Positions 37,742 through 64,000 of a stretch of DNA of 64,000 nucleotides are shown piece after piece. The stretch comes from Candidatus Babelota bacterium (GTDB lineage: Bacteria > Babelota > Babeliae > Babelales > RVW-14). Position numbers and translations under genes: made by a program. The number at the start of each line of letters is the position of its first letter. Position 1 is the stretch's first letter. The notes beneath the pieces are model-generated. The model did no database searches, was not told where the DNA came from, and saw only the letters and a program-made list of their open reading frames with translations. The stretch covers positions 5,424-69,423 of the forward strand of contig JABCZU010000005.1 in assembly GCA_013289515.1 (NCBI GenBank). Direction: 5' to 3'.

Positions 37742-40700
37742 CTAATTACGCATACCTTGTGGCGAAATCGTAAATATCCCAGCACTATTAGTCCCATAAA
37801 TCAACCCAGTCGCCGGATCATCCTTGGTTATTCGGTCATTCGCGGATAAGGAGGTAAACATGGCCGGCGTAAGGCTGGCTGGATTAGTAATTGGCTGCTT
37901 GGCCATGCTATCAAAGCTATTAAGCAGGGTGCGGCCCCCAGCACTATTAACAAACACCGTGCTGTAGGTTAATGCCGGTACTGTATTCAATAACAAGCGC
38001 ACTAGACCAAATACAGTGGTTTGTATAGGACGCAGGAACAGGAAGTTTTGAACATACCCAACCAGCGCGCTGCCAGCCAGACCTACCCGCCCATTACCAA
38101 TAAGCTCGGCGCCAATAGTACTAAAGTTAAATGGTGCATTAGCTCTATTGTTGCCAATACTCAGCAGCCCCTGTTGATTTAAGAAGAAGAAACCACCATC
38201 TTCAAATGATAATTTCTGTAAAAGGCTATTCTGAGGGACGCCTTTATTCGCGTTAATCTCCAAGACCCCTTGTTGACCAATAATGCCAACGCCCTGGTTA
38301 TGGAACTCTATATTAAAAGTTCCTTGGCTGAAGGATACAAATCCTTGTACTGGACTGGTTGGATTAGCCGGATTTTGGTTTACGGCATCAACTTTCAGCC
38401 GCGCATCTCTATCAACCACCATCGTTATTGCATCAGCTGAACTGCCTCCCAGAACAAGCTGTTGTCCTCCCTCGACAGAGATGAGCGCACCGGTATCAAT
38501 GAGCACCATTCCCTGTCCGGTGATAGAAGCGGTAGCCGGCGCTATTGCTGGTACTGTTGCGTTGTTGGTCAAACGAACTTTAGCTCTATCGGTCGCAGCT
38601 ACGGTGGCAGAGGCGTTGGTTCCGGCCCCGCCAAGCTTAATGGTAAGGCCATTTTGCAACCACACCGTACCATTACCCTGCCACTGCAAGAGCGCACCGG
38701 CTGGGATGGTTATTGGCGATGCCCCTGCTGTCATGATAACCATGGCTCCTTGGGCCTGCTTATCAAAGGTAATAAAGAGCTGGGCCCCTGGGTTAAAATT
38801 AAGTTGGCCATTGAAAGTGAACGTATTGGTAATCACAAGCTGATTATTTGTGCCATTAATATAAATAGTATCATTCGCCTTCAGCGTTGTTGGCGTTGAT
38901 CCTTGGTACACCGTGGCGTTGCCCATCAAATATAATTGCAACGTATTAACAGGATCAATATCAAAATTAGTAATTGACCCATTTGATACTTCAATGCCTC
39001 CACTTGCGTCATTAATTACCTGAGAGCCGGTCAGCACTCGTGTCTTAATATTTGTTGGCGGCAGGGGAAAATCTCTTGTTACCATATCATTATCTAGATA
39101 GTCACCACTACGCTTTTTACCCTGCTGCTTAGGTGGCCTGTGCTGTACACTGGCCTTTGGCTTATTAGCGGATGGCTTAGTAGCAAGCGGTTTATTTACA
39201 ATCGGCTTGCTCTGAGCATCTTTATTATATTCACGTTGTTTTAATTTTTGCTGAGCAAGGAAGGCGGCCTCCTGCCTTTTGCGCATAACTTCAAAGGCAT
39301 TGGTGGGGCGTTTTTTGAGCTGTTGCGGCTGTCTGATGACAAATGATGAATCAATAGCATTTGGAATATTGAGTGCAGTCAACGAAACACCGGCATTTAC
39401 TACCAAGTTGGCGGCCAACTGTTTTACCGGGAAGTTCTGAATCTGTATGTTTTGTCCACCAATCACCGCGTTAAGGTCAGTCACAAAGGCATTGGAGCCT
39501 AGATTGTTGACTGCTACCGCATAATTATCAAAAACAAGGCTGCTATACGCAATGCTAGACCCACCAACCAGCAGTAGATTATCACCAAAATTGACCGTTG
39601 GTGTACCTGAGACCGGCAACGTGCTTAGGTTAAGGGAGATATCTAACTGACTGTCAAATAATGCGCTATAGCCAATCAGCCCACTGAGTGTTAATTGATC
39701 ATTACGTAGCCGCAACGTATTATTTACAGCTTCAACAAAGAAGCTCATATCGGTATCAACATCAATATCTACAATGCTCTCACCGGTCAATGCCATGGCG
39801 CCCGTAAATATGCCGCCCGGCACAGCAACGCTTGCTACCGCAACACTTTGCAACCCTGTAAATTCTATATTTTCCAAGGCGATGGTACCCAGGCCAAGAT
39901 TGAAGGTTTTAATAATATTACCGGCCGAATCAACAATTGGCTGGATACTAACCCGCTTTTGAGCCCCTTCGCCAGTGAGGGTAAAGACGTTTGGCGTGTT
40001 TTGATCACCAAGTACTTGGATGGCATCCCCTGTTAATGAAATATCATCAATCAACTGAAAATCAACCCTAGGACCAATCAATAGTGAACTACCAGCTCCA
40101 AAGTCAAAGGTAAGCCCAGTAAGGCCGGCAAAGGTGATATTTTCTATCTCAAATATTACCCCCGGCTTTAAAAGAAGCTGCGGGTAAACAACATCACTAA
40201 ACATTATGGTCGCGCCCTGACCATTCAAGAGTAAATTATGATCAATTATAATCTGCTCACCTGGCTGCACCGTAAAACCATTGGTTATTGTCAATGTAGT
40301 TGATAGCGGAATCGTCCCAGTAAGCTCACCGCCACGCATAACTTGAATCGCACTGCTCAGTATTCTGAATCCATATAAAAACGCATTACTCGTATCACGT
40401 GCCAAAAATAAGAATGCCGCACTATTGATACGTGATAAAAATACTATTGCTTCGCTATTTACTCTATCACCGTACAACAATGCATTACTATTGGTGCGAT
40501 CACCAAATAACAGCGCATTACTGTTATTGCGGTCACCAAAAAGGAGTGCGTTACTGGTTATTCTGCTGTTATACGCAAAGGCTGCGCTTAAGACTCTATT
40601 TAGATACAGCAATGTATTACTGTTGTTCTTGGTTAGGAACAACTTGGCATTACTATCTGTCCTCTCATTAAACAGCAGCGCATTGCTATTTATGCGATCC

Positions 40701-43700
40701 CCAAATAACAGAGCGTTACTGTTGTTTTTAGTAAGAAATAACAATGTATTGCTCAATATCCTTAGGTTTTTATTTGTTGATTGGCTATTATTAATAATTG
40801 CAAACAACAAGGCATTACTGTTTATACGATTCAGGTACAGGAGTGCATTACTATTCACTCGATTATTGTAGGCTGCCGTCTCACTATTTATACGATCTCC
40901 AAAAAGAAGCGCATTGCTTGTTATCCTTGTTGCATACAATAATGCATTGCTATTGTATCGCACTAAGAAATTCAATGATTCACTGCTTATACGCGATAAA
41001 AATACTATTGCCTCACTATTTACTCTATCACCGTACAACAATGCATTACTATTGATGCGATCCCCAAATAAGAGAGTGTTGCTGTTTATACGGTCACCAA
41101 ACAATAACGCATTACTGGTGATTCGATTGTTGTATAGAATCGTGTTACTAAGCGTTCTGTTTACATAAAGAGCGTAACTACTAAAGGTACGATTTCCCGA
41201 TAGTACTGCGTTACTGGTCACCCTACTATTATATGCAAGGGCTGCACTTAATACTCTGTTCAGATACAATAACGTATTACTATTATTTTTGGTCAGGAAC
41301 AATTTGGCATTGCTGTCTGTTCTTTCGTTAAATAGCAACGCATTACTATTGATGCGATCACCAAATAACAAAGCATTGCTATTATTTTTAGTAAGAAATA
41401 ACAATGTATTGCTCAATATCCTTAGGTTTTTATTTGTTGATTGGCTATTATTAATAATTGCAAACAATAAGGCATTACTGTTTATACGATTCAGATACAG
41501 GAGTGCATTACTATTATTGGTCGTTAGGCGCAGCATCGCATTGCTGTTTATACGATCTCCAAACAAGAGAGCGTTACTGTTAATGCGATCACCAAATAAC
41601 AAGGCATTGCTTAACGTTCTATCAATGTACAGTGCGTAACTGCTACTTGTGCGATTGGCTGATAATATTGCATTGCTCGTGATTCTTGTTGCAAACAGTA
41701 ATGCATTACTGTTGTAACGTGCCAAGTATAATAATGATTCACTGGCTGTACGCGACAAGAACACTATCGCTTCACTATTGACTCTGTCACCGTACAATAA
41801 GGCGTTGCTGTTAATGCGATCACCAAAGAGCAGTGCATTGCTATTGACACGATTCAAGTACAACAAGGCATTACTGTTGTTGGTCGTTAGGCGCAGCATC
41901 GCATTGCTGTTTATACGATCTCCAAACAAGAGAGCGTTACTGTTAATGCGATCACCAAATAACAAGGCATTGCTCAAGGTTCGATCAATGTACAATGCAT
42001 AACTACTACTTGTACGATTAGCTGACAATATTGCATTGCTGGTCACCCTATTGTTGTACAAGATTGTATTGCTCAGCGTCCTATTCACATAGAGCTCAAA
42101 GCTACTGGTTGTTCTCTTTAAGGATAGCAGCGCATTGCTGGTGATTCTATTGTTATAGAGAATTGTCTCGCTATTTACTCTGTCGCCGTACAATAAGGCA
42201 TTACTGTTTATACGATTCAGGTACAGGAGTGCATTACTATTATTGGTCGTTAAGCGCAACATTGCGTTACTGTTGATACGATCTCCAAGCAAAAGCGCAT
42301 TGCTATTGATGCGATCACCGAACAACAAGGCATTGCTTAACGTTCTATCAATGTACAGTGCATAACTGCTACTTGTACGATTGGCTGATAATATTGCGTT
42401 GCTGGTCGTTCTATTGTTGAATAGTATCGTGTTACTCAATGTTCTGTTGCTGTAAAGCCCATAACTGCTAAATGTGCGATTGGCTGATAACAACGCCTCA
42501 CTAGTAATTCTATTGTTGTAGAGGATCGTGTTGCTAAGCGTTCGATTTACATACAAAGCATAACTACTGCTTGTCCTATTTGCCGATAAAATCGCATTGC
42601 TCAACGTCCTATTTACATATAACGCGTAGCTACTACTTGTGCGATTGGCCGATAGTAACGCTTCACTGGTTATACGATTATTGTACAGGATCGTCTCACT
42701 ATTTACTCTGTAACCGTACAATAATGCGTTGCTGTTTACACGGTTCAGGTACAGCAAGGCATTGCTGTTATTAGTGGTTAGGCGCAGCATGGCATTGCTA
42801 TTTATGCGATCTCCAAAGAGCAGCGCGTTACTGGTGATTCTTGTTGCATACAGTAATGCATTACTTGTAAAACGTGCTAAGGATGACAATGCCGCACTGC
42901 TGATACGCGATAAGAATACTATTGCTTCACTATTTACCCTGTCACCATACAAAAGCGCATTACTGTTTATTCTATCACCAAAAAGAAGTGCATTGCTTGT
43001 AATTCTATTATTGTATAGGATCGTATTACTCAATGTTCTATTAACGTACAGCTCGTAGCTACTCGTTGTTCGCTTTAAGGACAGTAAAGCATTGCTGGTC
43101 ACTCGGTTGTTGTAGAGGATCGTCTCACTGTTGACTCTATCGCCGAAGAGCAGCGCGTTGCTGTTTATGCGGTCACCAAAGAGCAGTGCATTGCTCAAGG
43201 TCCTGTCTACGTACAATGCATAACTGCTACTTGTTCGATTGGCTGATAATATTGCATTACTTGTAACACGGTTATTGTACAAGATCGTGTTACTCAGCGT
43301 CCTATTCACATAAAGCTCGTAGCTACTCGTTGTTCTCTTCAATGACAGTAAGGCGTTGCTGTTATACCGTGCCAGAAACAATAATGCTTCACTATCTATA
43401 CGAGATAGGAACACTATCGCCTCGCTGTTTACCCTATCTCCATACAGCAATGCATTGCTATTTACACGGTTCAAGTACAACAAGGCGTTACTGTTGTTGG
43501 TCGTTAGGCGCAACATCGCATTGCTGTTGATACGATCTCCAAACAAAAGCGCGTTACTGTTAATTCTATCACCAAATAACAAGGCATTGCTCAAGGTTCG
43601 ATCAATGTACAATGCATAACTGCTCGTTGTACGGTTTGCTGATAATATCGCATTGCTTGTAACACGGTTATTGTACAGGATCGTGTTGCTCAAGGTTCTA

Positions 43701-45367
43701 TTTACATACAACGCATAACTGCTACTTGTTCGATTAGCTGACAATATCGCGTTACTGGTAATTCTATTGTTATACAAAATTGTATTGCTAAGCGTCCTAT
43801 TAACATATAATGCATAGCTACTGCTTGTCCTATTGGCTGATAATATCGCTTCACTCGTTACACGATTATTATACAAGATCGTATTACTAAGCGTCCTATT
43901 CACGTACAATGCGTAGCTGCTAGATGTACGATTGGCAGATAACAGTGCCTCGCTGGTAACTCTATTGTTGTACAAGATCGTGTTACTCAACGTTCTATTC
44001 ACATATAACGCGTAGCTACTACTTGTACGATTGGCTGATAATATCGCATTACTGGTGGTTCTATTATTATAGAGGATCGTATTGCTATTCTCGCGATCAC
44101 CAAAGAGCAATGCCGCGCTGTTTATTCTATCACCAAATAAAAGTGCATTACTATTTATGCGATCGCCAAAGAGCAAGGCATTACTATTTGTTCTAGCTAA
44201 ATATAATAGTGTATTACTATTAGCTGTCACTGCCGCCGCATTAGTCATGGCATTAATCATGCCACCATTTAAATACGTTATAAATTTGGTACCCGCATCT
44301 GCTGCGGCGATACTGACGGTGGGCTGAATATTTTTAGCATCAGGATATTGGGTTGGATCATACCATAAGGTGACGCCATCAACCGTCAACGATGAGCTGT
44401 TGCTTACGGTCAGCACATGATTTTTTGTTACAATGGTTGATTCACCGTTGACATAAATACCACCTATAGTAAATGTGTATGAATTGGCCATTTCAATTTC
44501 AACACGCGTAAGACGCAATTGCGATGAAACACTTTCAAAAACAAAGCCCCCAAGTCCTAGTCCTTTAATCTTAATATCCTTCAAGTGCAGCGTAGTATTG
44601 GGTCTAATCCAAATAGAACCACGTTGCGTCAGATCAAGAATATTACCGTTGCCTAGGATGGTAGGCTGATTGCCAGATGTTAATGTACCAAAGGTCCACA
44701 TACCTGAGAGCTTGGTGTTACCCCGTAACTGCAAATCACTTGCATCGTTCCATAAAAGTGTATGCGTAAGTTTTAAAGAACCACTTGCCAGGGGAGCGCC
44801 AAAGGCAAACATCCTACCCGCTGTATCAACGGCACCCGATCCGGTAAGCGTTGCATCTGGCAACAGCCGAAGATCATCATCAAGAATAATGGTACCGCCA
44901 TTCATAACAATGGAACCGATATCGCCCGTAAGGGCCAAGGTAAGGCTACTGAGATTAGACGTAAGCGATAACGGACTGGTGAGCGTAAAATCTGGCGTGC
45001 CTTCTAGGCGGTTTCCGCCACGGATCACCGTAATTTGGTCTGAAAAGACACCATCAGATATACGAAAAATTTGATTAGTGTTAAGCACAATTGGCTGTGC
45101 CGACGTTGCGGCGTACGTGCCGGTAAAATAGGCGGGGTTGCCATTAATAGTCAGCATACCACCATTGAAAGCAATGGGCTGCTGTCCTGCCACTTTACCT
45201 GTTTGTGCAAGCGTCCCATTCCAGCTTGGAATGCTCGTATTAACGGTAAATTTTGCAGGCCCGACATTAATAGTAGAGTCTTGGCCAGAAAAATTAAGAC
45301 CAGCAAAACAGGTTATTTGAGCGAAGAGCACAATGATCAGATACATCAAACATGTATGATAACTCAT
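37742..45367 (-). CDS. Giant repeat protein 1 (2541 aa): signal peptide, conserved N-domain, about 118 copies of an 11-aa repeat, unique ~860 aa C-region
   Basis: Uninterrupted 7.6 kb ORF. The N-terminus is homologous to the other three giant proteins. Confidence 0.85.
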   Translation of the reverse strand: MSYHTCLMYLIIVLFAQITCFAGLNFSGQDSTINVGPAKFTVNTSIPSWNGTLAQTGKVAGQQPIAFNGGMLTINGNPAYFTGTYAATSAQPIVLNTNQIFRISDGVFSDQITVIRGGNRLEGTPDFTLTSPLSLTSNLSSLTLALTGDIGSIVMNGGTIILDDDLRLLPDATLTGSGAVDTAGRMFAFGAPLASGSLKLTHTLLWNDASDLQLRGNTKLSGMWTFGTLTSGNQPTILGNGNILDLTQRGSIWIRPNTTLHLKDIKIKGLGLGGFVFESVSSQLRLTRVEIEMANSYTFTIGGIYVNGESTIVTKNHVLTVSNSSSLTVDGVTLWYDPTQYPDAKNIQPTVSIAAADAGTKFITYLNGGMINAMTNAAAVTANSNTLLYLARTNSNALLFGDRINSNALLFGDRINSAALLFGDRENSNTILYNNRTTSNAILSANRTSSSYALYVNRTLSNTILYNNRVTSEALLSANRTSSSYALYVNRTLSNTILYNNRVTSEAILSANRTSSSYALYVNRTLSNTILYNNRITSNAILSANRTSSSYALYVNRTLSNTILYNNRVTSNAILSANRTTSSYALYIDRTLSNALLFGDRINSNALLFGDRINSNAMLRLTTNNSNALLYLNRVNSNALLYGDRVNSEAIVFLSRIDSEALLFLARYNSNALLSLKRTTSSYELYVNRTLSNTILYNNRVTSNAILSANRTSSSYALYVDRTLSNALLFGDRINSNALLFGDRVNSETILYNNRVTSNALLSLKRTTSSYELYVNRTLSNTILYNNRITSNALLFGDRINSNALLYGDRVNSEAIVFLSRISSAALSSLARFTSNALLYATRITSNALLFGDRINSNAMLRLTTNNSNALLYLNRVNSNALLYGYRVNSETILYNNRITSEALLSANRTSSSYALYVNRTLSNAILSANRTSSSYALYVNRTLSNTILYNNRITSEALLSANRTFSSYGLYSNRTLSNTILFNNRTTSNAILSANRTSSSYALYIDRTLSNALLFGDRINSNALLLGDRINSNAMLRLTTNNSNALLYLNRINSNALLYGDRVNSETILYNNRITSNALLSLKRTTSSFELYVNRTLSNTILYNNRVTSNAILSANRTSSSYALYIDRTLSNALLFGDRINSNALLFGDRINSNAMLRLTTNNSNALLYLNRVNSNALLFGDRINSNALLYGDRVNSEAIVFLSRTASESLLYLARYNSNALLFATRITSNAILSANRTSSSYALYIDRTLSNALLFGDRINSNALLFGDRINSNAMLRLTTNNSNALLYLNRINSNALLFAIINNSQSTNKNLRILSNTLLFLTKNNSNALLFGDRINSNALLFNERTDSNAKLFLTKNNSNTLLYLNRVLSAALAYNSRVTSNAVLSGNRTFSSYALYVNRTLSNTILYNNRITSNALLFGDRINSNTLLFGDRINSNALLYGDRVNSEAIVFLSRISSESLNFLVRYNSNALLYATRITSNALLFGDRINSETAAYNNRVNSNALLYLNRINSNALLFAIINNSQSTNKNLRILSNTLLFLTKNNSNALLFGDRINSNALLFNERTDSNAKLFLTKNNSNTLLYLNRVLSAAFAYNSRITSNALLFGDRNNSNALLFGDRTNSNALLYGDRVNSEAIVFLSRINSAAFLFLARDTSNAFLYGFRILSSAIQVMRGGELTGTIPLSTTLTITNGFTVQPGEQIIIDHNLLLNGQGATIMFSDVVYPQLLLKPGVIFEIENITFAGLTGLTFDFGAGSSLLIGPRVDFQLIDDISLTGDAIQVLGDQNTPNVFTLTGEGAQKRVSIQPIVDSAGNIIKTFNLGLGTIALENIEFTGLQSVAVASVAVPGGIFTGAMALTGESIVDIDVDTDMSFFVEAVNNTLRLRNDQLTLSGLIGYSALFDSQLDISLNLSTLPVSGTPTVNFGDNLLLVGGSSIAYSSLVFDNYAVAVNNLGSNAFVTDLNAVIGGQNIQIQNFPVKQLAANLVVNAGVSLTALNIPNAIDSSFVIRQPQQLKKRPTNAFEVMRKRQEAAFLAQQKLKQREYNKDAQSKPIVNKPLATKPSANKPKASVQHRPPKQQGKKRSGDYLDNDMVTRDFPLPPTNIKTRVLTGSQVINDASGGIEVSNGSITNFDIDPVNTLQLYLMGNATVYQGSTPTTLKANDTIYINGTNNQLVITNTFTFNGQLNFNPGAQLFITFDKQAQGAMVIMTAGASPITIPAGALLQWQGNGTVWLQNGLTIKLGGAGTNASATVAATDRAKVRLTNNATVPAIAPATASITGQGMVLIDTGALISVEGGQQLVLGGSSADAITMVVDRDARLKVDAVNQNPANPTSPVQGFVSFSQGTFNIEFHNQGVGIIGQQGVLEINANKGVPQNSLLQKLSFEDGGFFFLNQQGLLSIGNNRANAPFNFSTIGAELIGNGRVGLAGSALVGYVQNFLFLRPIQTTVFGLVRLLLNTVPALTYSTVFVNSAGGRTLLNSFDSMAKQPITNPASLTPAMFTSLSANDRITKDDPATGLIYGTNSAGIFTISPQGMRN
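40345..44225 (-). repeat. 33 nt (11 aa) coding tandem repeat array in giant protein 1
   Basis: Units such as ALLFGDRINSN, TILYNNRVTSN, AILSANRTSSSY and ALYVNRTLSN. Boundaries are approximate. Confidence 0.85.
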
Positions 45368-45447
45368 CTCTCCCCTACCTCTTTTCCGTTATACATAAGC
45401 ACTTATCGACGCAAGAATAACGTATTGCCCAACACCAAAACAAGTAA

Positions 45448-53650: not shown

Positions 53651-56600
53651 TTAAAATTGACTTACAGAGCCGTTAAATAACAAAGGATTAATTAAACCAG
53701 CCTGCGTTGAAAGGTACAGTACTGCGGATCCTAAATTCATCGTCTGATCAAGTAATAAGTCTCCACCAGGATTGATTACCATGCTTGAATACTGACTCCC
53801 AACGACCAGTGAGGGCGCATTAACGTTTTGATAGATTAGGTAACCTCTATCCATCTCTAAAATCGCTCCAGGTTTAAGCACAAGTATCTGATCATGACTT
53901 GCATTATTATCACCAAGAATAAAACCAGTCGTCTGGTTGCTGCCGTTAAAAAATCCGGTGGTTGTCACAGCACCTTCAACAAAAATCTGCGCCAAACCGT
54001 CCACGGACAAATTGCCATTAATAAGCTGCATGCCATATTTTGTAGCATGAATCGTAGCATTATTCATATATAATTGTGATGAATTATCCGCAAAGGTCAG
54101 GAGCTTCGGCCTATTGCCCTGAGGATCATAACTAAAGGTGAATGTTGGCTCCAAATATAGGGAGGCATTATGCGCAATGGTCGATGAAAGTGATGTATGA
54201 AAGGCAAAGGTGTACGTGCCATACATATCCAAAAATGTATTAATCTGAAACGACCCACGACTAAAGGTAAAGTTATTATCCTGTATCCACGTAATAGCAT
54301 CAAAAATAATTGAAGCAGAATTATCCATACAGGAGATATTATTACTACCAACACCGCGTATGGTTGCATTTCTCACATTAAGCGAAGCATTATGACCGAT
54401 AACAACATTTGCGTTAGGGCCAAGGATGATTGTACACCCTTGGGCATCAAGCAAACAGGCGCCGGTAAATTTTAGGGTACTATTGATAGTTAAGTCATTA
54501 TTAAGATACATGTTAGCGGTATTAAATATAAGCGGGGAAGTACCTGGAAAGGTACTTACTGTAGGTGCCAAATCAATACTATAATTATTGGCGTTAATCA
54601 CCCCGCCTGTTTGGAAATAGCCGCCATTGCCCAAAACAAGATCCGACCCTAACTGTAATGACCCGCCGTGTAGTGCTATAGGCCCTGCAACTGGATAAAC
54701 TGACTGAAAGGTTACTGTCGTGGTGTTACTGTGTAGGCTAAAACCACTTGGCAGGTAGTTAAATGGCGTGATTACATTGCTTGAGCCACCAATAAAACTA
54801 TTGTTCGTTGATGTATGCGCGGAGGACAAGAATTCATTACTGAAGATGCGAGCGTTATACAATATCGTATTGCTCAGCGCTCTTATAAGTACCGGATTAG
54901 CCGCCGCCGCTACAAAGACAATGGCTGCGCTTGCAATTCTATTATTAAACAGGATTGTATTACTCAGTGTTCTATTCACATACAAGGCATAACTACTACT
55001 CGTACGATTTGCCGATAGCAAGGCTTCGCTCGTTATTCTATTGTTATAGAGTATCGTGTTGCTTAACGTTCTATTTACATATAATGCGTAACTGCTTGCT
55101 GTACGCTTTAACGATATGATCGCATTACTGTTATTCGTTGATAACCGTAACATTGCATTGCTGTTAACGCGATCACCAAATAACAATGCATTACTGTTAT
55201 TTTTTGTCAGGAACAACAGGGCATTGCTTGTCGTTCTTCCAAAGCTTCCGCCATTCAGAGTGGCACTGCTGAGCACACGCATGTCATAGGCCAGTGTGTT
55301 ACTAGTGATTCTGTTGTTGTACAAGATCGTGTTACTCAGAGTTCTGTTTACATACAACCCATAGCTGCTACTTGTTCGATTGGCCGACAATATCGCTTCG
55401 CTCGTTATTCTATTCACATACAATGCGTAACTACTTGCTGTGCGCTTTAGTGATATGATGGCGTTACTGTTATTCGTTGATAATCGAAGCATTGCATTAC
55501 TGTTGACTCGATTCAGGAACAACAGGGCACTACTATTGATGCGATTACCAAATAACAATGCCGAGCTTAGTGTCCTATCAACATACAACGCGTAACTACT
55601 GCTCGTTCGATTTGCCGATAACAAGGCCTCGCTCGTTATACGATTGTTATATAAAATCGTATTGCTTAACGTTCTATTCACATACAAAGCATAACTGCTT
55701 GCTGTGCGTTTCAATGATAGAATGGCATTACTGTTATTTGTTGATAACCGTAGCATTGCATTACTATTAACCCGGTTCAGATACAATAATGCGTTACTAT
55801 TGATGCGACTGCCAAACAATAACGCAGTACTCAACGTTCTATCAACATACAATGCATAGCTGCTGCTTGTACGATTTGCCGATAACAACGCGTTACTGTT
55901 TGTCCTATTGCCATATAATGATGCATTACTCAGCGTTCTATTCACATACAAAGCATAGCTACTACTGGTGCGATTCGCTGATAGCAGCGCTTCACTGGTG
56001 ATGCGATTGTTATAGAGTATCGTGTTGCTTAACGTTCTATTCACATATAATGCATAACTGCTTGCTGTACGCTTTAATGATATGATGGCATTACTGTTAT
56101 TTGTTGATAAGCGTAACATTGCGTTACTATTCACACGTGCCGCAAATAACAGCGCATTGCTATTTATGCGATTACCAAAGAGCAACGCATTACTCAGTGA
56201 CCTATCCGCATACAATGCATAACTGCTATGGGTACGATTGGCTGATAGCAATGCGTTACTATTCGTGCGATTACCAAATAGCGAAGCGTTACTCAGCGTC
56301 CTATTCACGTATAATGCATAACTGCTACTCGTACGATTTGCCGATAATATCGCAGTACTATTTGTCCTATTCACATACAACGCATAGCTACTACTTGTTC
56401 TATTTGCCGACAATATCGCATTACTCAACGTTCTATCAACATACAACGCATAAGAGCTATGAGTACGATTCGCTGACAGTATTGCAGTACTATTTGTACG
56501 ATTCACATACAAGCTATAACTACTAAAGGTTCTATTTGCTGATAATATCGCATTACTATTTGCTACCACAAGGCTAAGTGGTGCCATTCCTTGAATTGCC

Positions 56601-57712
56601 CCGCCGTTCAAGTAGGTGATTGATGTGGTGCCAATATTGGCCGCCGCAGCAGAAACCACAGGACGAATATTTCTATTGTCATTATATTGGGTTGGATCGT
56701 ACCAAAGCGTCGTCCCATCTACGGTCAGGGTGGCAGCATTAGTCAAGGTGAGCAGATGATTTTTTGTTACAATTACTGATTCACCCTCAATATAAATACC
56801 GCCTATTGTAACGGTATAAGAATTGGCCATTTCAATTTCAACGTGAGAAAGGTGAATATTGGCAGTCTGATCTTGAAAAACAAAGCCGCCACGACCCAGC
56901 CCTTTAATTTTAATATTGGCCAGTCTCAGTGATACGCCGCGTGAGATATAAATAGATCCCCCTTGTGTTAAATCAAGGGTTTTGTCATGACCAACAATAC
57001 GCGCGTATGCCGAGTCATTTTTGGTAAATGTCCATTGACCCGATAAAGCAAGATTGCCTTCGATCAAAATTTTATCAGCATCACACAGTAAAAGCGTATG
57101 CGTTAGTGCTAAACTTTGTGTTGCATAAGGGCCTCCAAAAAGTAGATTTCTACCATCCAAAGAAACGTATCCAGAACCTTGTAACGAGGCATCTTGCGCT
57201 AACTCAAGATCACCATCAAGAAGTATATTTCCCCCATTCATTACTATGTTACCCATGCGACCTGCAAGGCCAAGCGTCACAAAACTCAAATTATGCGCTA
57301 GAGTAAGAGGAGCTGACACCAATCGGTCAAACAGCGCACTGCCATCTAATCTGTTTCCCCCTCGTATAACAACAATCGGGGTGAACAATTGACCCTCTTC
57401 TGCACGCAATAACTGGTTGGTGGTGAGCACAAACGGCGATGTAGCTCCAGGGGCATATATAAATGAGCCTTCAGCATCGGCATTACCAATACTAAGCATC
57501 CCACCGTTAAAGGTAATTGGTTGCGTTCCGACTATCGCTCCTACCTGCGTCAGCGTGCCATTCCACGCTGGAATTGCAGTATTAATAGCAAATTTTGCAG
57601 GACCAACATTAATCGTCGAGCTTGCTCCTGAAAAATTTAATCCTGCTGGTAAGCATGGTGCCTCAGCAAGGAGCATTATAATAAAATAGAGCCAGCACAC
57701 GAACAAACCCAT
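53651..57712 (-). CDS. Giant repeat protein 3 (1353 aa)
   Basis: Same architecture as giant protein 2. Ends ..NGSVSQF. Confidence 0.85.
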   Translation of the reverse strand: MGLFVCWLYFIIMLLAEAPCLPAGLNFSGASSTINVGPAKFAINTAIPAWNGTLTQVGAIVGTQPITFNGGMLSIGNADAEGSFIYAPGATSPFVLTTNQLLRAEEGQLFTPIVVIRGGNRLDGSALFDRLVSAPLTLAHNLSFVTLGLAGRMGNIVMNGGNILLDGDLELAQDASLQGSGYVSLDGRNLLFGGPYATQSLALTHTLLLCDADKILIEGNLALSGQWTFTKNDSAYARIVGHDKTLDLTQGGSIYISRGVSLRLANIKIKGLGRGGFVFQDQTANIHLSHVEIEMANSYTVTIGGIYIEGESVIVTKNHLLTLTNAATLTVDGTTLWYDPTQYNDNRNIRPVVSAAAANIGTTSITYLNGGAIQGMAPLSLVVANSNAILSANRTFSSYSLYVNRTNSTAILSANRTHSSYALYVDRTLSNAILSANRTSSSYALYVNRTNSTAILSANRTSSSYALYVNRTLSNASLFGNRTNSNALLSANRTHSSYALYADRSLSNALLFGNRINSNALLFAARVNSNAMLRLSTNNSNAIISLKRTASSYALYVNRTLSNTILYNNRITSEALLSANRTSSSYALYVNRTLSNASLYGNRTNSNALLSANRTSSSYALYVDRTLSTALLFGSRINSNALLYLNRVNSNAMLRLSTNNSNAILSLKRTASSYALYVNRTLSNTILYNNRITSEALLSANRTSSSYALYVDRTLSSALLFGNRINSSALLFLNRVNSNAMLRLSTNNSNAIISLKRTASSYALYVNRITSEAILSANRTSSSYGLYVNRTLSNTILYNNRITSNTLAYDMRVLSSATLNGGSFGRTTSNALLFLTKNNSNALLFGDRVNSNAMLRLSTNNSNAIISLKRTASSYALYVNRTLSNTILYNNRITSEALLSANRTSSSYALYVNRTLSNTILFNNRIASAAIVFVAAAANPVLIRALSNTILYNARIFSNEFLSSAHTSTNNSFIGGSSNVITPFNYLPSGFSLHSNTTTVTFQSVYPVAGPIALHGGSLQLGSDLVLGNGGYFQTGGVINANNYSIDLAPTVSTFPGTSPLIFNTANMYLNNDLTINSTLKFTGACLLDAQGCTIILGPNANVVIGHNASLNVRNATIRGVGSNNISCMDNSASIIFDAITWIQDNNFTFSRGSFQINTFLDMYGTYTFAFHTSLSSTIAHNASLYLEPTFTFSYDPQGNRPKLLTFADNSSQLYMNNATIHATKYGMQLINGNLSVDGLAQIFVEGAVTTTGFFNGSNQTTGFILGDNNASHDQILVLKPGAILEMDRGYLIYQNVNAPSLVVGSQYSSMVINPGGDLLLDQTMNLGSAVLYLSTQAGLINPLLFNGSVSQF
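54830..56565 (-). repeat. 33 nt coding repeat array in giant protein 3 (about 52 units)
   Basis: Same repeat family. Boundaries are approximate. Confidence 0.85.
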
Positions 57713-57726
57713 CTATTCCCTTTGTT

Positions 57727-58788
57727 CTATTGATATTTTATTCGTCCATACATGTAAACGGTCGAACCGCCCATCACCTTGGTAGTAAGGCTGGAATTAA
57801 GCAGAATCGACTCGCCGGTATTTCTGCCTGTGCTTGTCATCGTAACCTGATCATCTAATAACAACGTTCCTGTTTGCAACTGTAATCCTGTATACGTAGA
57901 AAAAAGCGTGCAACCGCTTAAATAAAGGCACGATGTGTTATCAATCATATTCAGTAAATTTCCTCGCGCATTACGCGGGGCATAACTAAAGGTAGTATCG
58001 TGATCAAACATAAGCGTACTTAGCGTATTAATCGTACTGCCAATCCCCGAGGTATACGCAAACGTTGTGGTACCGGTAAATACAACGTCTTTATCAAATA
58101 AAATTGATCCACGAGAGAAGGTATAATTTGCACTGCATGCCAAAATAACATTGCGCAGAATCAGTGATCCATTATCCATCAAACAACGTACATTGGTTGT
58201 GCCTAAATTGCTAAGCGTTACATCTTCTATAATAAGCTGCGAATTTGGCCTCACCACAAGGGCTGAACCGTTCTCGAGTGTTAGTACTTTACCCGTCGTT
58301 CCACGAATTTTACAATTTTGTGCAAATTGTAAGATGCCATAAAGCCTTGTATTGGTATCAAACTGTAGTATGGTTGCATTAAAATTCAATGAGGCCGTTA
58401 GCACAAAGTCAGTTGTGGTTTCACCAAGAGTAAAGCTATTGCCATTACCCAAAATAGTGCCGCCCGTGGGAAAGCGTATCGGTTGAACACATATAAAATC
58501 TTGTCCAAGTGACAACACCCCACCATTCAAGCTTACCGCGCTAGAGACTGGAAAATAGCTACCAAAAGTACATGTATCGGTGTTGGCTGCAAAATTGAAT
58601 CCATTATCCAGAGCACCAAAGGCGAGTATGGCATTAAGCCCACCCCCAAGCGCTGCTGTCGGTTGAATCGACACTGTAGTGTTTGATCCCACGTTTGCCG
58701 CTTTGACCAAGCCGGCTATTGCTATCAGGATAATAAAATAACAGATATAACGAGTAATAATGCGCATTACCAATACTCCCACAAACAA
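57727..58788 (-). CDS. Partner protein 3 (353 aa)
   Basis: Paralog of the other partners. The TTG start aligns with the ATG start of partner 2 (MFVGVLVM vs MFVGILLM). Confidence 0.8.
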   Translation of the reverse strand: MFVGVLVMRIITRYICYFIILIAIAGLVKAANVGSNTTVSIQPTAALGGGLNAILAFGALDNGFNFAANTDTCTFGSYFPVSSAVSLNGGVLSLGQDFICVQPIRFPTGGTILGNGNSFTLGETTTDFVLTASLNFNATILQFDTNTRLYGILQFAQNCKIRGTTGKVLTLENGSALVVRPNSQLIIEDVTLSNLGTTNVRCLMDNGSLILRNVILACSANYTFSRGSILFDKDVVFTGTTTFAYTSGIGSTINTLSTLMFDHDTTFSYAPRNARGNLLNMIDNTSCLYLSGCTLFSTYTGLQLQTGTLLLDDQVTMTSTGRNTGESILLNSSLTTKVMGGSTVYMYGRIKYQ

Positions 58789-58795
58789 ATTATGC

Positions 58796-61700
58796 TCAAA
58801 ACTGGCTCACAGAACCGTTAAGGTACTGTTGATTTATTAAGCCACCACTGGTAGAAAGATTCAGTATCCCGGGCGACAAATTCATTGGCTGTTCAAGTAA
58901 TAAGTCTGCACCCGGATTTATTGTTATATTTGAATATTGACTGCGAGCAAATAACGAGCTTGCATTAACATTTTGATAGATTAAATACCCTCTATCCATC
59001 TCTAACGTAGCACCGAAATTCAGCACAAGTATCTGATCATTACCTGCATTATTACCAAGAACAAAGCCGGCCGTCTGACTACTACCAACGTTCAACAATC
59101 CAGTTACAGCCTGAGCCCCTTCAACAAAAATTTGCGCTAATCCATCTACTAATAAGGTACCGTTAGTGAGCTGCATGCCATATTTTGTAGCATGGATCGT
59201 GGCGTTATTCATATATAACTGTGATGAATTATTTAAAAAGGTAAGCAGCTGTGGTCTATTACCTTGTGGGTCATAACTAAAGGTAAATGCCTGATCTAAA
59301 GAAAGTGTTGAGTTAGAATGAATCGTTGATGCAAGCGATGTATTAAAGGCAAAGGTATACGAACCTATCATATCAAAAGAATGAACTACGCCAAAAGACC
59401 CATTACTAAAGGTAAAATTAGCATCCTGAATCCACGCCGTTGTATCAAAAATTATGGATCCTGAATTATCTTGGCAACAAATATTGCTACCACCAACTTT
59501 ATTTAAAAATATATTTTTAAAGCGAAGTGTAGCGTTTTGTTTTACCGTGATGCTGCCAGCAGTTGCTAGCGATAACGTATTGCCTTGACCATCAATAATA
59601 CACGATCCTTCTACAAACAGTGGTGCCGCCAGATTCGTAGCATCATTTAATTTTATAAATGCTCCATTCCCATTAAACAACATCGTGCTTGTCCATGTAG
59701 TGGTACCTAGATTAAGATTAAGCGTGTGAGAGGCAAGTTGCAGAAACCCTCCCCCAGTAATAACTATGCCGTACCCAAGGGTTAAATCATTGCCCAGCGT
59801 TATGGTGCCGCCATTTAAACTAATGTTACTCAGGATACTGCCGCCTACGTCAAGGGTAGCTGCTGGTGACAGACCGCTAAAAATTATAGGACCAGAAATG
59901 TCGCCTATAGATGCTATCGTATTCCCCGTCCCTTCAATTAATGAGGCTAGCGGATAGGTACCAAAGGTAGCCTTCACGGTGCCACCGTTGAAAAGTAATA
60001 AGGTTTGAGCAGTAAAACGAGTAGCCGTTACCGTAAATTCTGCTGTCGGTAACGTAACATTAGCATTTGTATAATACATGGATGTCCCGGGTGCCAGGAT
60101 TGAGCCGCCACTACCCAGTTCTGAAACATTAATGTTGGAATAGTTCGTGCTGTGCTTATCGTAAATGACACTATTGCCACTTTGTACATAGTTGACAGGA
60201 ACATCATGAGAGGCAAAGGTGCTTGATCGCGTAACATTACTCACCAAATAACCGCTTGCTAAATTAATAGCTGCATCCGGATACAAATAGATGTAGGGAT
60301 CATTGGCACTATTGCCATTACCAACGAGAAGACCATTACTTGTGCTAGTAGAATTAATATCAATATACACTTCTCGATCAATAACAACCGCACCATTAAG
60401 AAGTGACATCCCGGATGAGGTAACGGTAAATGTACAATTCTCAAGTTTTAACTTGGCGGTCTGATCGGTAAAATAAAGCGGCTCGCGCGAGAAAATACCG
60501 CCAGTTCGCCCAATAGTTACGTTAATAACATCAGAAAGGTACCACATGGACTCAGTATCAATAGTACTGGTCAATGAAGATGCATAGACAAACGTATACG
60601 GACCAACAAAATGAACCTGGTTATCAAATTCTATAGAGCCCTGCGTAAACGTATAGTTTCCTGTCTGGGTCCATTGCATATTATCTAAAATGAGCTTGGC
60701 ACTATTATCAAGACACTGGATGCGGCCGCTCGTTACGCTATTGAGATCAACATTGCGTAAACGCAAGCTGGCATTATGCCCCACAACGATGCTAGCATTA
60801 CTGCCCAGTGATATGCTGCAACCACGCGCATCAAGCACGCAGTTGCCCGTAAATTTAGCAGTCCCAGACAAGGTGATATCGTTGTTAAGATAAATGTTTG
60901 CATTATTCAACACCATATTATTTGTCATGGTCATGCCGGTGATCGTTGAAGAGAAATCCACCGCATGGTTGTTGGCAATGATCGTCCCGCAAGTCCCCCA
61001 ATTGGTCACGTTCTGGAAAATAAGATCGGTACCTAAATACAGTTGTCCACCATGCAATGATACAAAGCCTGATACAGGAAAGACTGAGCCAAAGGTACAG
61101 GTGGTATTAGAATCCTGCAGAACAAAGCCTTTTTCGAAAAATTGGAACGGGAAAATAATGTTAGTTGATACCCCGGTCGGAAATATGGTAAATGGCTGCA
61201 CCGCAGGGGCTGTGACAATCGCATTACTATTTACACGGTTACCAAATAATAACGCATTACTTGTTGTTCTATTGTTGTACAAGATCGTATTGCTCAGTGT
61301 TCTATTCACATACAATGCATAACTACTACTCGTACGATTTGCCGATAGTATTGCGTTACTATTTATTCTGTAGTTATACAAGATTGTATTGCTGAGCGTT
61401 CTGTTAACATACAACTCATAGCTGCTTGTCGTACGCTTTAATGATAATAAGGCGTTACTAGCCGTTCTATTGTTATACAGGTCAGCATTGCTTAATGTTC
61501 TATTCACATACAATGCATAGCTGCTACTTGTCCTATTGGCCGATAGTATCGCGTTACTTGTTGTTCTAGCATTGTACAAAATTGTGTTACTATTTGTTCT
61601 ATTCACATACAAGGCATAGCTGCTACTCGTGCGATTTGCGGACAAGATCGCATTACTTGTTGTTCTGGCATTATATAAAATTGTATTGCTCAACGTCCTA

Positions 61701-62974
61701 TTCACATATAAGGCATAGCTACTATGTGTACGGTTGGCTGATAATAAAGCATTGCTCGTTATTCTAGCATTATACAAAATCGTATTACTATTGTTTTTAT
61801 TGAGATAGAGCAAGGTATTACTGTTGGCTGCAGCAAGCACCAGCGGAGTCATGCCCTGGACAGCGCCACCATTTGAATAGGTAACAAATTTATTATTAAC
61901 ATTACTTGCAGCATTTTGAAGCGGTTGAATTGCGTAATCTGTGACATATTGCGTGGTATCATACCATAGCGTAACCCCATCAACCGTCAGTGATGCATTG
62001 GTGCTCATCGTCAATACATGATTTTTTGTAACAATGGTTGACTCACCATTAACGACAATGCCGCCAGTCGTAACGGTATAGGAGTTAGCCATCTCAATTT
62101 CAACGCGACTGAGACGCAATTGCGATGTGTGATCTTCAAAGACAAAACCCCCTCGACCCAAGCCTTTTATTTTTACATCGACCAAGCGTAGCATTGTATT
62201 AGCTTTAATAAAAATTGAGCTGCCGCGTGATAAATCAAGTGTATGCCCATTGCCAGAAATGGTAGGATCACAATTTGCATTCGCTAGAGTGCCAAATCGC
62301 CACATGCCATACAAAACCACATTACCATTTAATTGTAATTGGCTAGCATCATTCCATAGCAGCGTATGCGTCAATAGTAATGCACCGCTTGAAAGTCCAG
62401 CACCAAAGATAAATCTTCTTCCTGCTGTATCTACCGTGCCTGATCCAGTCAGTGTAGCATCTGGCAATAAATCAAGATCATTATCAAGAATAATCGTTCC
62501 ACCATTCATGGCAATTGAGCCCATATTACCATTAATCGCCAGCGTAACGCTGCTTAAATTGTGGGCCAATGTTAGTGGTGTAGCCAAAGAAAAATCGGGA
62601 GTACCTTCTAGCCTATTGCCATTGCGAATGACAACAACAGCACTAGAAAATAGGCCATCTGACACGCGCAAGAGCTGATTAGTATTCAGAACAAATGGCG
62701 TTGCCGCATTACCAGCATACAGACAGTTTGCCCATGCAGGATTATTATTGATAGTGACGATGCCATTGGTAAAGGTAATCGGCTGGCCAACGACAGCCCC
62801 TGTTTGTGCAAGCGTTCCATTCCAACCGGTAATAGCAGTATTCAGAATTAACTTACCAGAGCCAACAGTAACCGTTGAACCCTGGTGCAAAAAATTTAAC
62901 CCGGCAACAGCACTACAGGATGCCTGATAACAGAGGAAGAAAGCCACATATACAAGGCTAGTACAATAACTCAT
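58796..62974 (-). CDS. Giant repeat protein 4 (1392 aa) with a short repeat array and two partner-like modules
   Basis: Conserved N-domain, about 19 repeat units, then two copies of the C..D..GC / C.DNS / NFTF / FSYDPQGNR module. Ends ..NGSVSQF. Confidence 0.85.
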   Translation of the reverse strand: MSYCTSLVYVAFFLCYQASCSAVAGLNFLHQGSTVTVGSGKLILNTAITGWNGTLAQTGAVVGQPITFTNGIVTINNNPAWANCLYAGNAATPFVLNTNQLLRVSDGLFSSAVVVIRNGNRLEGTPDFSLATPLTLAHNLSSVTLAINGNMGSIAMNGGTIILDNDLDLLPDATLTGSGTVDTAGRRFIFGAGLSSGALLLTHTLLWNDASQLQLNGNVVLYGMWRFGTLANANCDPTISGNGHTLDLSRGSSIFIKANTMLRLVDVKIKGLGRGGFVFEDHTSQLRLSRVEIEMANSYTVTTGGIVVNGESTIVTKNHVLTMSTNASLTVDGVTLWYDTTQYVTDYAIQPLQNAASNVNNKFVTYSNGGAVQGMTPLVLAAANSNTLLYLNKNNSNTILYNARITSNALLSANRTHSSYALYVNRTLSNTILYNARTTSNAILSANRTSSSYALYVNRTNSNTILYNARTTSNAILSANRTSSSYALYVNRTLSNADLYNNRTASNALLSLKRTTSSYELYVNRTLSNTILYNYRINSNAILSANRTSSSYALYVNRTLSNTILYNNRTTSNALLFGNRVNSNAIVTAPAVQPFTIFPTGVSTNIIFPFQFFEKGFVLQDSNTTCTFGSVFPVSGFVSLHGGQLYLGTDLIFQNVTNWGTCGTIIANNHAVDFSSTITGMTMTNNMVLNNANIYLNNDITLSGTAKFTGNCVLDARGCSISLGSNASIVVGHNASLRLRNVDLNSVTSGRIQCLDNSAKLILDNMQWTQTGNYTFTQGSIEFDNQVHFVGPYTFVYASSLTSTIDTESMWYLSDVINVTIGRTGGIFSREPLYFTDQTAKLKLENCTFTVTSSGMSLLNGAVVIDREVYIDINSTSTSNGLLVGNGNSANDPYIYLYPDAAINLASGYLVSNVTRSSTFASHDVPVNYVQSGNSVIYDKHSTNYSNINVSELGSGGSILAPGTSMYYTNANVTLPTAEFTVTATRFTAQTLLLFNGGTVKATFGTYPLASLIEGTGNTIASIGDISGPIIFSGLSPAATLDVGGSILSNISLNGGTITLGNDLTLGYGIVITGGGFLQLASHTLNLNLGTTTWTSTMLFNGNGAFIKLNDATNLAAPLFVEGSCIIDGQGNTLSLATAGSITVKQNATLRFKNIFLNKVGGSNICCQDNSGSIIFDTTAWIQDANFTFSNGSFGVVHSFDMIGSYTFAFNTSLASTIHSNSTLSLDQAFTFSYDPQGNRPQLLTFLNNSSQLYMNNATIHATKYGMQLTNGTLLVDGLAQIFVEGAQAVTGLLNVGSSQTAGFVLGNNAGNDQILVLNFGATLEMDRGYLIYQNVNASSLFARSQYSNITINPGADLLLEQPMNLSPGILNLSTSGGLINQQYLNGSVSQF
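61215..61828 (-). repeat. 33 nt coding repeat array in giant protein 4 (about 19 units)
   Basis: Same repeat family. Boundaries are approximate. Confidence 0.8.
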
Positions 62975-63104
62975 CCAACGTCCTTTTTCTCTTTTTTACT
63001 CCATGTCGAAGCGATGATAGCTCATTACTCTAAGCTAAGACAAATAAAAGAATTAATAATGAAAAAAGCGTATTACTGCTCGTATTATTTGGGCACCAAC
63101 ATCA

Positions 63105-64000
63105 TCATATCACCTTAACAAACCCGTTCACATTAACCGCGGCCGTTCCCTTTAATCGAATGTTAAGATTAGAATTTAAGGTAAGCGCCTCGCCACTATT
63201 TTTTGCCGAGCTACTCAACGTAATATTATCATCTAAAATAAGTGTACCACCGCTCAGCAATAATCCCGTTCTTGTTGAATAGAGCGTGCAGCCGTTCAGA
63301 TATAACGCTGATGTTGCGTCTGTCATGAATAATAAAGCATTCTTTGCATTGCGCGGCGCATAGCTAAAGGTAACACCACTATCAACAAATAAGGTGGACA
63401 ATGATCCAATCGTGCTGGTCAGGCCACTGGCGTAAATAAAGGTGCCGGTGCCGGTCAGTACCACCGTCCCATCGAATAACAGTGATCCACTGGTGAGTGT
63501 AAAATTATTAGACAAAAAGAGATTAGAATTTCTTAAGACCACAGAGCCATTATCACTCATACAGCGCAGATTATTGTTATTAAGCCCAACAATATTAGTG
63601 TCCTCAAACACCAATTGGCCACCAGGACGTATAATGATTGGGCTATTGCTATTAAGCGTAATTTTATTGCCTTTCCCCATTATTTTACAGTGACCACCAA
63701 ACTGAACATCGCGCGTAATAATAAGATTGGTATTTAAAAGAAGATTGGTATTGTTAAATAGAAGTGGATAGTCATAATCAACGGAATATACCAGAGCCTG
63801 CGGCACGGCATCTCCGAGCGCTAAGTGATTGCCATCATGCGAAAAACGCCCTGCGGTCACGTTGCCATTGCCATTATCAAGCAGGCCGCTGGCCTCAATG
63901 AGTTGATAATTAATCTGGTCAAAATAAAATATGACCACATCACTACCGCTTGCAGCATTACCAGAGTAAGCAACGGATAAATATTTGCCCGTAGTATTCC
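63105..64000 (-). CDS. Partner protein 4, 5'-partial, with a different N-terminal extension
   Basis: The C-terminal 200 aa are homologous to partners 1-3. The reading frame stays open upstream of the GTG at 63938 through to the window edge. Confidence 0.7.
   Translation of the reverse strand, partial: NTTGKYLSVAYSGNAASGSDVVIFYFDQINYQLIEASGLLDNGNGNVTAGRFSHDGNHLALGDAVPQALVYSVDYDYPLLFNNTNLLLNTNLIITRDVQFGGHCKIMGKGNKITLNSNSPIIIRPGGQLVFEDTNIVGLNNNNLRCMSDNGSVVLRNSNLFLSNNFTLTSGSLLFDGTVVLTGTGTFIYASGLTSTIGSLSTLFVDSGVTFSYAPRNAKNALLFMTDATSALYLNGCTLYSTRTGLLLSGGTLILDDNITLSSSAKNSGEALTLNSNLNIRLKGTAAVNVNGFVKVI

Follow-up and report, generated by a model that had tools for sequence, protein, structure and literature searches.

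The window analyzed here is a stretch of 64,000 nucleotides (positions 5,424 to 69,423, forward strand) of the contig JABCZU010000005.1 from the genome assembly GCA_013289515.1 of a Candidatus Babelota bacterium. Its minus strand carries, over ~26 kb, an array of eight open reading frames (ORFs), named here P1 to P4 (the "partners," annotated as ~350 amino acids, aa) and G1 to G4 (the giants, 1353 to 2541 aa), and downstream of these the genes for a coiled-coil protein and an outer-membrane-barrel-like protein (Table 1). Dependentiae (TM6) is a widespread and almost entirely uncultured phylum of obligate parasites of protists, and to our knowledge little can be said about host attachment, entry, or manipulation by these bacteria past "many ankyrin proteins and secreted ORFans." Judging from the sequence comparisons described below, the array arose by lineage-specific tandem expansion of one unnamed protein family, largely or only present in Dependentiae (TM6), and the three-gene cassette at 34679-45367, which consists of G4 with its C-terminal domain (g4cterm), the coiled-coil gene, and the barrel-like gene, is best regarded as the conserved core of the locus.

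Array layout and the protein family

An ORF scan reproduced the eight minus-strand ORFs reported in a first-pass annotation of this DNA, with the same order and lengths and all seven gaps (80, 19, 11, 7, 14, 7, and 130 bp, from G4 to P1), and every ORF of the array is intact. In the public gene calls P2 and P3 begin at an internal ATG (346 and 347 aa, respectively), which makes two gaps ~21 bp wider. Because the genes have the same orientation and are separated by short gaps, co-transcription of the array is plausible; scans of the array for promoter and terminator consensus sequences gave counts at or near chance level. A hydrophobic, signal-peptide-like N-terminus, as annotated earlier, is present in all seven complete proteins. 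The leaders of the giants lack a basic n-region and have A-x-A-like sites just ahead of a conserved GLNFSG motif, and the giants are preceded by good Shine-Dalgarno-like sequences. Dependentiae retain Sec and an apparatus resembling the type II secretion system (T2SS) and type IV pili (PMC4776705), and 44% of the coding sequences of Chromulinavorax have signal peptides, many of these being ORFans (PMC6561590).

The first-pass annotation had separated the array into two distinct types of ORF, a distinction that did not survive comparison of the proteins with one another. In BLASTP alignments covering ~300 residues, the partners were 31-34% identical to C-terminal parts of the giants (E 1e-37 to 1e-53); G1 contains two such partner-like segments, and G2 and G3 contain one each. 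The partners also aligned, more weakly, with the N-domain of the giants, and home-made hidden Markov models (HMMs) confirmed the homology of the modules. One of these, profile A1, matches all eight window proteins, the partners at 1e-83 to 1e-150 and the C-modules of the giants at 1e-110 to 1e-126. The N-domain, which had been recognized as common to the four giants, spans ~385 aa, is 53-77% identical among them, and is modeled as an all-beta solenoid. On these alignments, the ~350 aa partner is to be seen as a single-module paralog of the ~330 aa modules of the giants and as a distant relative of the N-domain. The ~330 aa module would then be used in three ways, i.e., alone in the partners, as a diverged N-terminal head of the giants, and in one or two copies toward their C-terminal end.

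The giants are further built from an 11-residue repeat, R-[TIV]-x-S-[NS]-[AYT]-[LI]-L-[YFS]-x-[ND], whose profile over 250 units has R1 at 92%, S4 at 100%, L8 at 90%, and N or D at position 11, with no proline and 2% Gly. The length differences among the giants are largely differences in repeat copy number, which ranges from 18 to ~116. At the DNA level the repeat arrays have periods that are multiples of 33 nt, with 68-80% identity, and because the copies have diverged to this degree the arrays are old and not recent products of slippage. There is an invariant Ser in each 11-residue unit, and N-x-S/T sequons, which often span the N11-R1-T2 junction, number 42-55 per giant in the repeats of G1-G4. 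In the beta-helix adhesins TibA, AIDA-I, and HMW1, repeats are glycosylated.

An exhaustive profile search of a representative library of 1.84 billion proteins returned 2,584 matching proteins, 1,541 of which were below 1e-30. This overturned the impression of a tiny family given by a word-indexed homolog search (10 matches for the partner and three for the N-domain). Family representatives typically have two to eight tandem modules of ~410 aa, the largest case having 19 matched stretches in 4,562 aa, and their signal-peptide-like N-termini are followed by a conserved (V/I)-K/V-G-S-x-T motif. Among the named sources checked, every member is hypothetical and most are from Candidatus Dependentiae, TM6, or Babeliales; the few labeled otherwise (Epsilonproteobacteria, Neisseriaceae, and one "WD40 repeat protein") may be mislabels. 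A genome scan gave 14 related loci (designated by L numbers), five of them with Babeliales or TM6 titles and nine titled otherwise (e.g., "uncultured Pseudomonadota" and "Margulisbacteria"); four of these nine are near-identical to a labeled Babeliales locus or are built in the way usual for these arrays. Elsewhere, too, diverged paralogs are arranged in tandem on one strand, with four genes of ~695 aa in L002 and five of ~700 aa in L006, and mixed arrays of paralogs are found in L004, L007, L027, L031, and L034. A description of the family was not found in the literature searched.

Two further family genes, P0085 (824 aa, two modules) and P0004 (340 aa, a single module), are located outside the window on the same 76,757 bp contig, so the array, or a second array, extends past the window. 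Both are also carried by a Logan contig from SRR8422708 (L001, 1813-5433), and L001 has no DNA overlap with the window.

The g4cterm, coiled-coil, and barrel-like genes

Unlike G1-G3, G4 continues with a Lys/Pro/Gln-rich linker (aa ~2015-2095) and then the ~440 aa g4cterm domain. Alignment of g4cterm with the module by hhalign gave a probability of 60% over 72 columns, and the domain is not a recognizable module copy; no Pfam matches were found in the 15 members scanned, nor any PDB matches. The 448 aa ORF for the coiled-coil protein, which ends ...KKLLKEALKSLVED, begins 55 bp downstream of G4, and its stop is overlapped by the 553 aa ORF for the barrel-like protein. Homologs of the latter directly adjoin family genes in L003, L007 (twice), and L008, and the genes immediately upstream of barrel-like homologs encode C-termini homologous to the C-terminal domain of G4.

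This linkage was also found in loci fetched by the barrel-like protein alone, the ORFs of which were scanned with four HMMs. A g4cterm gene is located directly upstream of the barrel-like gene, on the same strand, in 18 of the 19 loci with upstream DNA; in the exception (L037), a g4cterm giant is encoded two genes downstream, so that both genes belong to the same cluster in all 19. Pairs of these genes that do not adjoin have between them an ORF with transmembrane and coiled-coil segments, and many of these ORFs have the tail K[KR]KK[LV]L..[LF]L..[LM].[DE][DE]. In contiguous pairs, the barrel-like protein itself often has a K/E-rich N-terminal extension. We interpret this as a fission/fusion pattern, the coiled-coil component being either separate or fused to the barrel-like protein. 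On L007 (JAGMEA010000030.1, 4236-18818, Babeliales), two complete g4cterm-to-barrel-like cassettes are present, separated by ~9 kb that includes family genes, which indicates that the cassette itself can be duplicated.

Several features suggest that the 553 aa protein is an outer membrane barrel. In its family, 21 of the 22 complete C-termini listed end in F or W after alternating hydrophobic residues (typically ...LSLAAEF, ...VSFNAEF, or ...LTLEALW, the last being that of the window protein). Amphipathic beta segments, at least 10 of them, were also picked up by a crude scan for period-2 hydrophobicity. The 553 aa protein has an N-terminal hydrophobic leader as well, and so combines a signal peptide with a C-terminal beta-signal like that of BAM-dependent outer-membrane barrels. 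The barrel-like protein and 18 homologs have no Pfam matches, even at E ≤ 1 to 10, and thus no Omp85/POTRA signature in Pfam, and no PDB sequence relatives were found.

Taken at face value, these relationships make the coiled-coil and barrel-like proteins, which are encoded outside the segment delimited by the first-pass annotation and are linked to the C-terminal domain of G4, the conserved non-paralogous partners of the locus, and they make the upstream P and G genes paralog amplifications with a mosaic, recombination-like history. Of the leads from this analysis, the cassette is the one of greatest interest and the easiest to test. As for other genes seen beside such loci, in L016 the barrel-like gene is adjoined by a DUF4143 ATPase similar to that at 21706-22899 of the window (AAA_14/DUF4143), and the family genes of L001 are adjoined by an AAA-type ATPase of another kind (ATPase_2/AAA_16).

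TABLE 1. Coordinates of the array, the cassette, and other genes in the window (position 1 is the first nucleotide of the window)
Feature	Position	Strand	Length or residues	Description
G4	37742-45367	-	2541 aa	N-domain, 11-residue repeats, further beta-rich region, linker, distinct C-terminal domain
P4	45448-46500	-	350 aa	Single module; 66-67% identity to P2 and P3
G3	46520-52567	-	2015 aa	N-domain, 11-residue repeats, one C-terminal module (aa 1624-1957)
P3	52579-53643	-	354 aa	Single module; 75% identity to P2
G2	53651-57712	-	1353 aa	N-domain, 11-residue repeats, one C-terminal module (aa 958-1295)
P2	57727-58788	-	353 aa	Single-module protein, predicted beta-solenoid; signal-peptide-like N-terminus
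G1	58796-62974	-	1392 aa	N-domain (aa 1-390), repeats, modules at aa ~587-919 and ~990-1341
P1	63105-64000	-		Cut by window end; WD40-like segment, then C-terminal two thirds of module
G1 repeats	61205-61798		aa 393-590	18 units
G2 repeats	54848-56533		aa 394-955	~51 units
G3 repeats	47657-51388		aa 394-1637	~113 units
G4 repeats	40358-44194		aa 392-1670	~116 units
g4cterm domain	37745-39079	-	G4 aa ~2097-2541 (~440 aa)	Found elsewhere at C-termini of family proteins beside barrel-like gene
Coiled-coil protein	36340-37686	-	448 aa	One transmembrane-like segment (aa ~172-201); charged, coiled-coil-like C-terminal half
Outer-membrane-barrel-like protein	34679-36340	-	553 aa	Signal peptide, amphipathic beta segments, C-terminal motif
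Acyl-activating fusion protein	880-3699	-	939 aa	AMP-binding, phosphopantetheine carrier, and acyltransferase fusion
Tyrosine recombinase	8183-9124	+		XerC/D-type
Schlafen protein	10286-11467	+		AlbA_2/HATPase_c_4
Heparinase II/III-like protein	12567-14618	+	683 aa	
Phosphoesterase	14733-17735	-	1000 aa	Calcineurin-like phosphoesterase domain
ATPase	21706-22899	+		AAA_14/DUF4143
YhcG/DUF1016 nucleases	31047-32240; 20123-21289			PD-(D/E)XK; first copy interleaved with ankyrin genes
Ankyrin-repeat paralogs	27542-28798; 29768-30955; 32307-33419	+	~370-418 aa	Repeats near C-terminus

Partner-giant pairing and array history

The array had been annotated as four partner-plus-giant pairs, three of which (P2/G2, P3/G3, and P4/G4) are indeed complete pairs of a ~350 aa protein and a giant. 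The fourth partner, P1, appears to have a larger and different architecture. Over their whole length, the 297 aa of P1 inside the window are 40-49% identical to the C-terminal ~300 aa of the four ~700 aa proteins of L002. In each of these, a WD40-like insertion of ~340 aa divides the module (WD40 matches were obtained on relatives). P1 is probably such a ~700 aa split-module variant and not a 350 aa partner, and because of this resemblance we count three complete pairs, not four. The split-module sub-type with its WD40/beta-propeller-like insertion (~700 aa) is represented by L002 4397-12734 (four in tandem), L037 4911-7949, and apparently P1 in the window.

It might be supposed that every ~350 aa protein serves specifically the giant next to it (as a chaperone, tip, base, or assembly factor), being produced with it in a fixed ratio from one transcript, and that the array consists of four two-component units. 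The three pairs alternate strictly on one strand with gaps of 7-80 bp, and the good Shine-Dalgarno-like sequences of the giants are also in line with this supposition. Nevertheless, the partner is a paralog of the giants' own modules, and which giant would own which partner is ambiguous, the giant-to-partner gaps (7, 7, and 19 bp) being tighter than the partner-to-giant gaps (130, 14, 11, and 80 bp). Moreover, the strict alternation noted in the first-pass annotation does not extend to related genomes, in which a single-module gene (~350-400 aa) directly precedes only ~1 of 18 N-domain genes (L034); the usual gene at this place is a multi-module gene, a barrel-like gene, or another N-domain gene. 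The identity patterns of the partners are also incongruent with those of the neighboring giants, indicating that the two were not simply duplicated as pairs. Together with the different architecture of P1, these points make dedicated partnership unlikely in our judgment.

The paralogs of the array are 43-77% identical and their relationships are mosaic, with the N-domain of G3 nearest to that of G4 (77%), the C-module of G3 nearest to that of G2 (59%), and P2 and P3 75% identical, a pattern which would not be expected had P+G units simply been duplicated. In other genomes, single proteins combine these domain types, with three modules, an N-domain, and a module in 10 representatives, four modules, an N-domain, a module, and g4cterm in P0086, P0110, and P0184, and seven to eight N-domain-module units in P0016 and P0163. 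Such fusion argues for a place in the same assembly, also under the supposition of dedicated partners, and because of it partner-type and giant-type units probably act together. The window array resembles a mega-protein of this kind divided into pieces, each with its own leader.

The mosaic relationships of the paralogs, the wide span of repeat numbers, and the same-strand arrays of diverged paralogs in other Babeliales genomes could also reflect a variation repertoire of recombining surface-protein genes, few of which would be expressed at once, as with chlamydial Pmps or the variable surface proteins of mycoplasmas. This proposal concerns the reason for the gene amplification and is compatible with the surface-fiber explanation given below. 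We consider it very unlikely, because no homopolymer tracts, invertible elements, or silent cassettes were seen at the gene starts, slippage is improbable given the divergence of the DNA repeats (68-80%), and every ORF is intact.

Fold, relation to known systems, and possible function

The AlphaFold2 model of P2, built with 14 family sequences, has a mean predicted local distance difference test score (pLDDT) of 86.3 and a predicted TM-score (pTM) of 0.82 and shows short strands throughout, as in a beta-solenoid, and the G1 N-domain is modeled as a beta-solenoid of the same kind (pLDDT ~85-90). Foldseek searches of PDB and BFVD with such models returned right-handed beta-helix proteins only, all of them weak matches (E ≥ 0.014, the top ones at 0.014-1; TM-score ≤ 0.34), i.e., the SRRP adhesin, TibA, Ag43, Hbp, tailspikes, polygalacturonases, and giant-virus beta-helix proteins. 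The beta-helix look noted in the first-pass annotation is therefore right at the level of fold class, with no specific family identified. The repeat region was modeled at pLDDT 25-33, so we draw no conclusion as to whether it is alpha or beta. Its S/L/L/N core, lack of Pro, and 2% Gly fit a hendecad coiled coil; its richness in N, S, T, and Y and the strands of period 11 in the low-confidence model fit a beta-solenoid of 11-residue arcs.

Pfam and NCBIfam scans of the eight array proteins (E ≤ 0.1) gave nothing above threshold, the Pfam Beta_helix model scoring 18 bits against a cut-off of 25.9, and PDB sequences had no meaningful match to the module, g4cterm, and barrel-like profiles. Matches to Tis1_ImmP, DivIVA, Scy, LysM, and C1q were rejected as sub-threshold or low-complexity artefacts. 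The array proteins thus fall into no characterized family, and the earlier failure to see by eye an autotransporter barrel or a two-partner secretion (TPS), RTX, cadherin/Ig, or LPXTG signature was borne out by the scans and motif counts. The autotransporter barrel PF03797 is absent from all eight proteins; neither PF05860 nor a related TPS match was found in them, and the N-domain has no Pfam match; they contain no GG.G.D motifs of the RTX type, and ABC or HlyD-type genes were not among the neighbors scanned. The Pmp motifs GGA[ILV] (0-1 per protein) and F..N (3-6 per protein) occur at chance level, with no Chlam_PMP or Autotransporter Pfam matches. Likewise, there are no Pfam matches to a YadA-type anchor or Hep_Hag/HIM in the array proteins, and the likeness of the 11-residue repeat to the NS-x-A-[IL] core of trimeric autotransporters is a loose one and not a match. 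Lipoprotein, Pmp, RTX, and LPXTG readings were ruled out by the motif counts and by inspection of the N-termini.

The locus resembles the adhesin repertoires of the autotransporter, TPS, and Pmp types in kind but belongs to none of them. With the type V adhesins (Ag43 and TibA; FHA and HMW1 among the two-partner systems), the array proteins share the character of large right-handed beta-helix proteins exported by Sec, which is predicted here, and repetitive, length-variable regions, and they have weak structural matches to the passengers of TibA, Ag43, and Hbp. Compared with type Va, a beta-helix passenger is predicted but there is no C-terminal autotransporter barrel in the same chain. As in type Vb, where TpsB is encoded beside TpsA, a barrel-like gene lies beside a fiber gene, but the giants have no N-terminal TPS domain and the barrel-like neighbor has no Omp85/POTRA or other Pfam signature. 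The conserved link here is instead a C-terminal domain of the fiber, and there is a third component, the transmembrane coiled-coil protein.

Chlamydial Pmps are lineage-specific, multi-copy beta-helix surface proteins of obligate intracellular bacteria, often clustered and thought to be adhesive or variable; the array is likewise multi-copy and clustered, with a predicted beta-helix fold, but has no GGA(I/L/V)/FxxN repeats, autotransporter domain, or sequence similarity. Those barrel-like members that have a long, charged, coiled-coil N-terminal extension may resemble the coiled-coil-plus-barrel tethers of the OmpM/SlpA type, but there is no SLH domain or Pfam match here, and the coiled coil of the window is a separate transmembrane protein. 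Phage tailspikes and the SRRP adhesin domain bind glycans or surfaces, and a tailspike (4oj5) and an SRRP (5ny0) are the best structural matches of the N-domain and the partner, respectively (E 0.014-0.07, TM-score 0.2-0.25); fold class alone, not family, is common to them and the array. Giant1-5 of Apilactobacillus kunkeei are reported to be very large extracellular proteins with beta-solenoid regions, encoded by consecutive co-directional genes (PMC12863079). They are like the array in that co-directional giants account for a considerable part of a small genome; they differ in belonging to a Gram-positive bacterium with other anchoring and in having unrelated sequences, and they are not known to alternate with single-module paralogs or to have an outer-membrane component.

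Pectate lyases, polygalacturonases, and tailspike depolymerases are commonly of the same fold class, and so the array proteins might be secreted enzymes or effectors, either beta-helix glycan lyases or hydrolases released through the T2SS against host glycans or walls, or soluble intracellular effectors. There is a weak profile match to the pectate-lyase-like allergen Jun a 1 (E 0.012), a heparinase II/III-like gene is present elsewhere in the window, and the T2SS is conserved in Dependentiae (PMC4776705). We nonetheless judge this quite unlikely: the glycosidase, lyase, and Beta_helix Pfam models are all below threshold, no catalytic motif was identified, the structural matches are as weak as described above, and the long repeat spacers, multi-module build, and outer-membrane-like neighbor are typical of adhesins or fibers.

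On balance we lean, with slightly better than even confidence, toward the explanation that the array encodes Sec-exported beta-helix surface fibers or adhesins which are anchored or exported by the cassette. In this respect the suggestion of the first-pass annotation that the locus is a candidate for an undescribed surface, adhesion, or host-interaction system, free of any recognizable secretion or anchoring signature, is judged the most reasonable reading. Sec would carry all the proteins across the inner membrane, and the barrel-like protein and the periplasmic coiled coil would export or anchor the G4-type fiber at the surface through its C-terminal domain, with the remaining family members displayed alongside or released. 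The 11-residue repeats would serve as a rod or spacer between head and tail and set the length, and the resulting adhesive fibers of variable length may bring the cell into contact with its protist host or promote its uptake by that host. G1-G3 and the partners have no g4cterm; they could be assembled onto the G4 fiber, released through the T2SS, or retained in the periplasm.

Several points weigh against the surface-fiber explanation. Because g4cterm is absent from G1-G3 and the partners, the proposed mechanism does not account for their route past the periplasm. We place the proteins at the surface by their fold class, their signal-peptide-like N-termini, and the parallel with beta-helix adhesins, and we take the 553 aa protein for a probable barrel from its signal peptide, terminal motif, and a crude amphipathicity scan; given the pLDDT of the repeats, the rod is likewise a matter of interpretation. 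The gene adjacency is compatible with a barrel-like protein that could be a porin or envelope tether merely sharing the operon. Finally, the domain HMMs are home-made, and the loci were found by motif scans, several of them being from close relatives (L031-L033 and L035).

A bolder proposal, which we hold to be possible though doubtful, is that the cassette is an undescribed outer-membrane export or anchoring system, so far of Dependentiae only. It would be a "split" passenger-and-translocator system recognizing a C-terminal domain and serving thousands of modular host-engaging fibers, and its predicted parts would be a g4cterm-ended beta-helix fiber, an inner-membrane-anchored coiled-coil protein, and a barrel-like protein without known relatives.

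The remaining genes of the window (three ankyrin-repeat proteins, gyrA, dprA, and trpS) fit an intracellular Dependentiae chromosome, and no tRNAs were found in the window. In the syntenic locus L018, pgsA, pgpA, gyrA, and dprA are contiguous, so the ankyrin/nuclease block of the window looks like an insertion between pgsA and gyrA. The heparinase II/III-like protein and the 1000 aa phosphoesterase are possible host-glycan or host-interaction enzymes, and the 939 aa fusion protein resembles an Aas-type acyl-ACP synthetase/lysophospholipid acyltransferase, consistent with lipid scavenging.

The locus exposes one of the largest protein families of Dependentiae, with thousands of diverged members and no Pfam or NCBIfam model, and shows how its members are composed, from module, head, 11-residue spacer, and C-terminal domain. 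The coiled-coil and barrel-like genes suggest a way in which fibers might get to the cell surface, or be kept there, in this phylum, which lacks recognizable type V systems. Should the cassette prove not to be an export or anchoring device, the definition of the family and the correction of the "two-component" reading remain useful. If the cassette does export or anchor these fibers, it would be a new variant in the repertoire of outer-membrane secretion, and its genes would provide markers for host-interaction loci in metagenomes.

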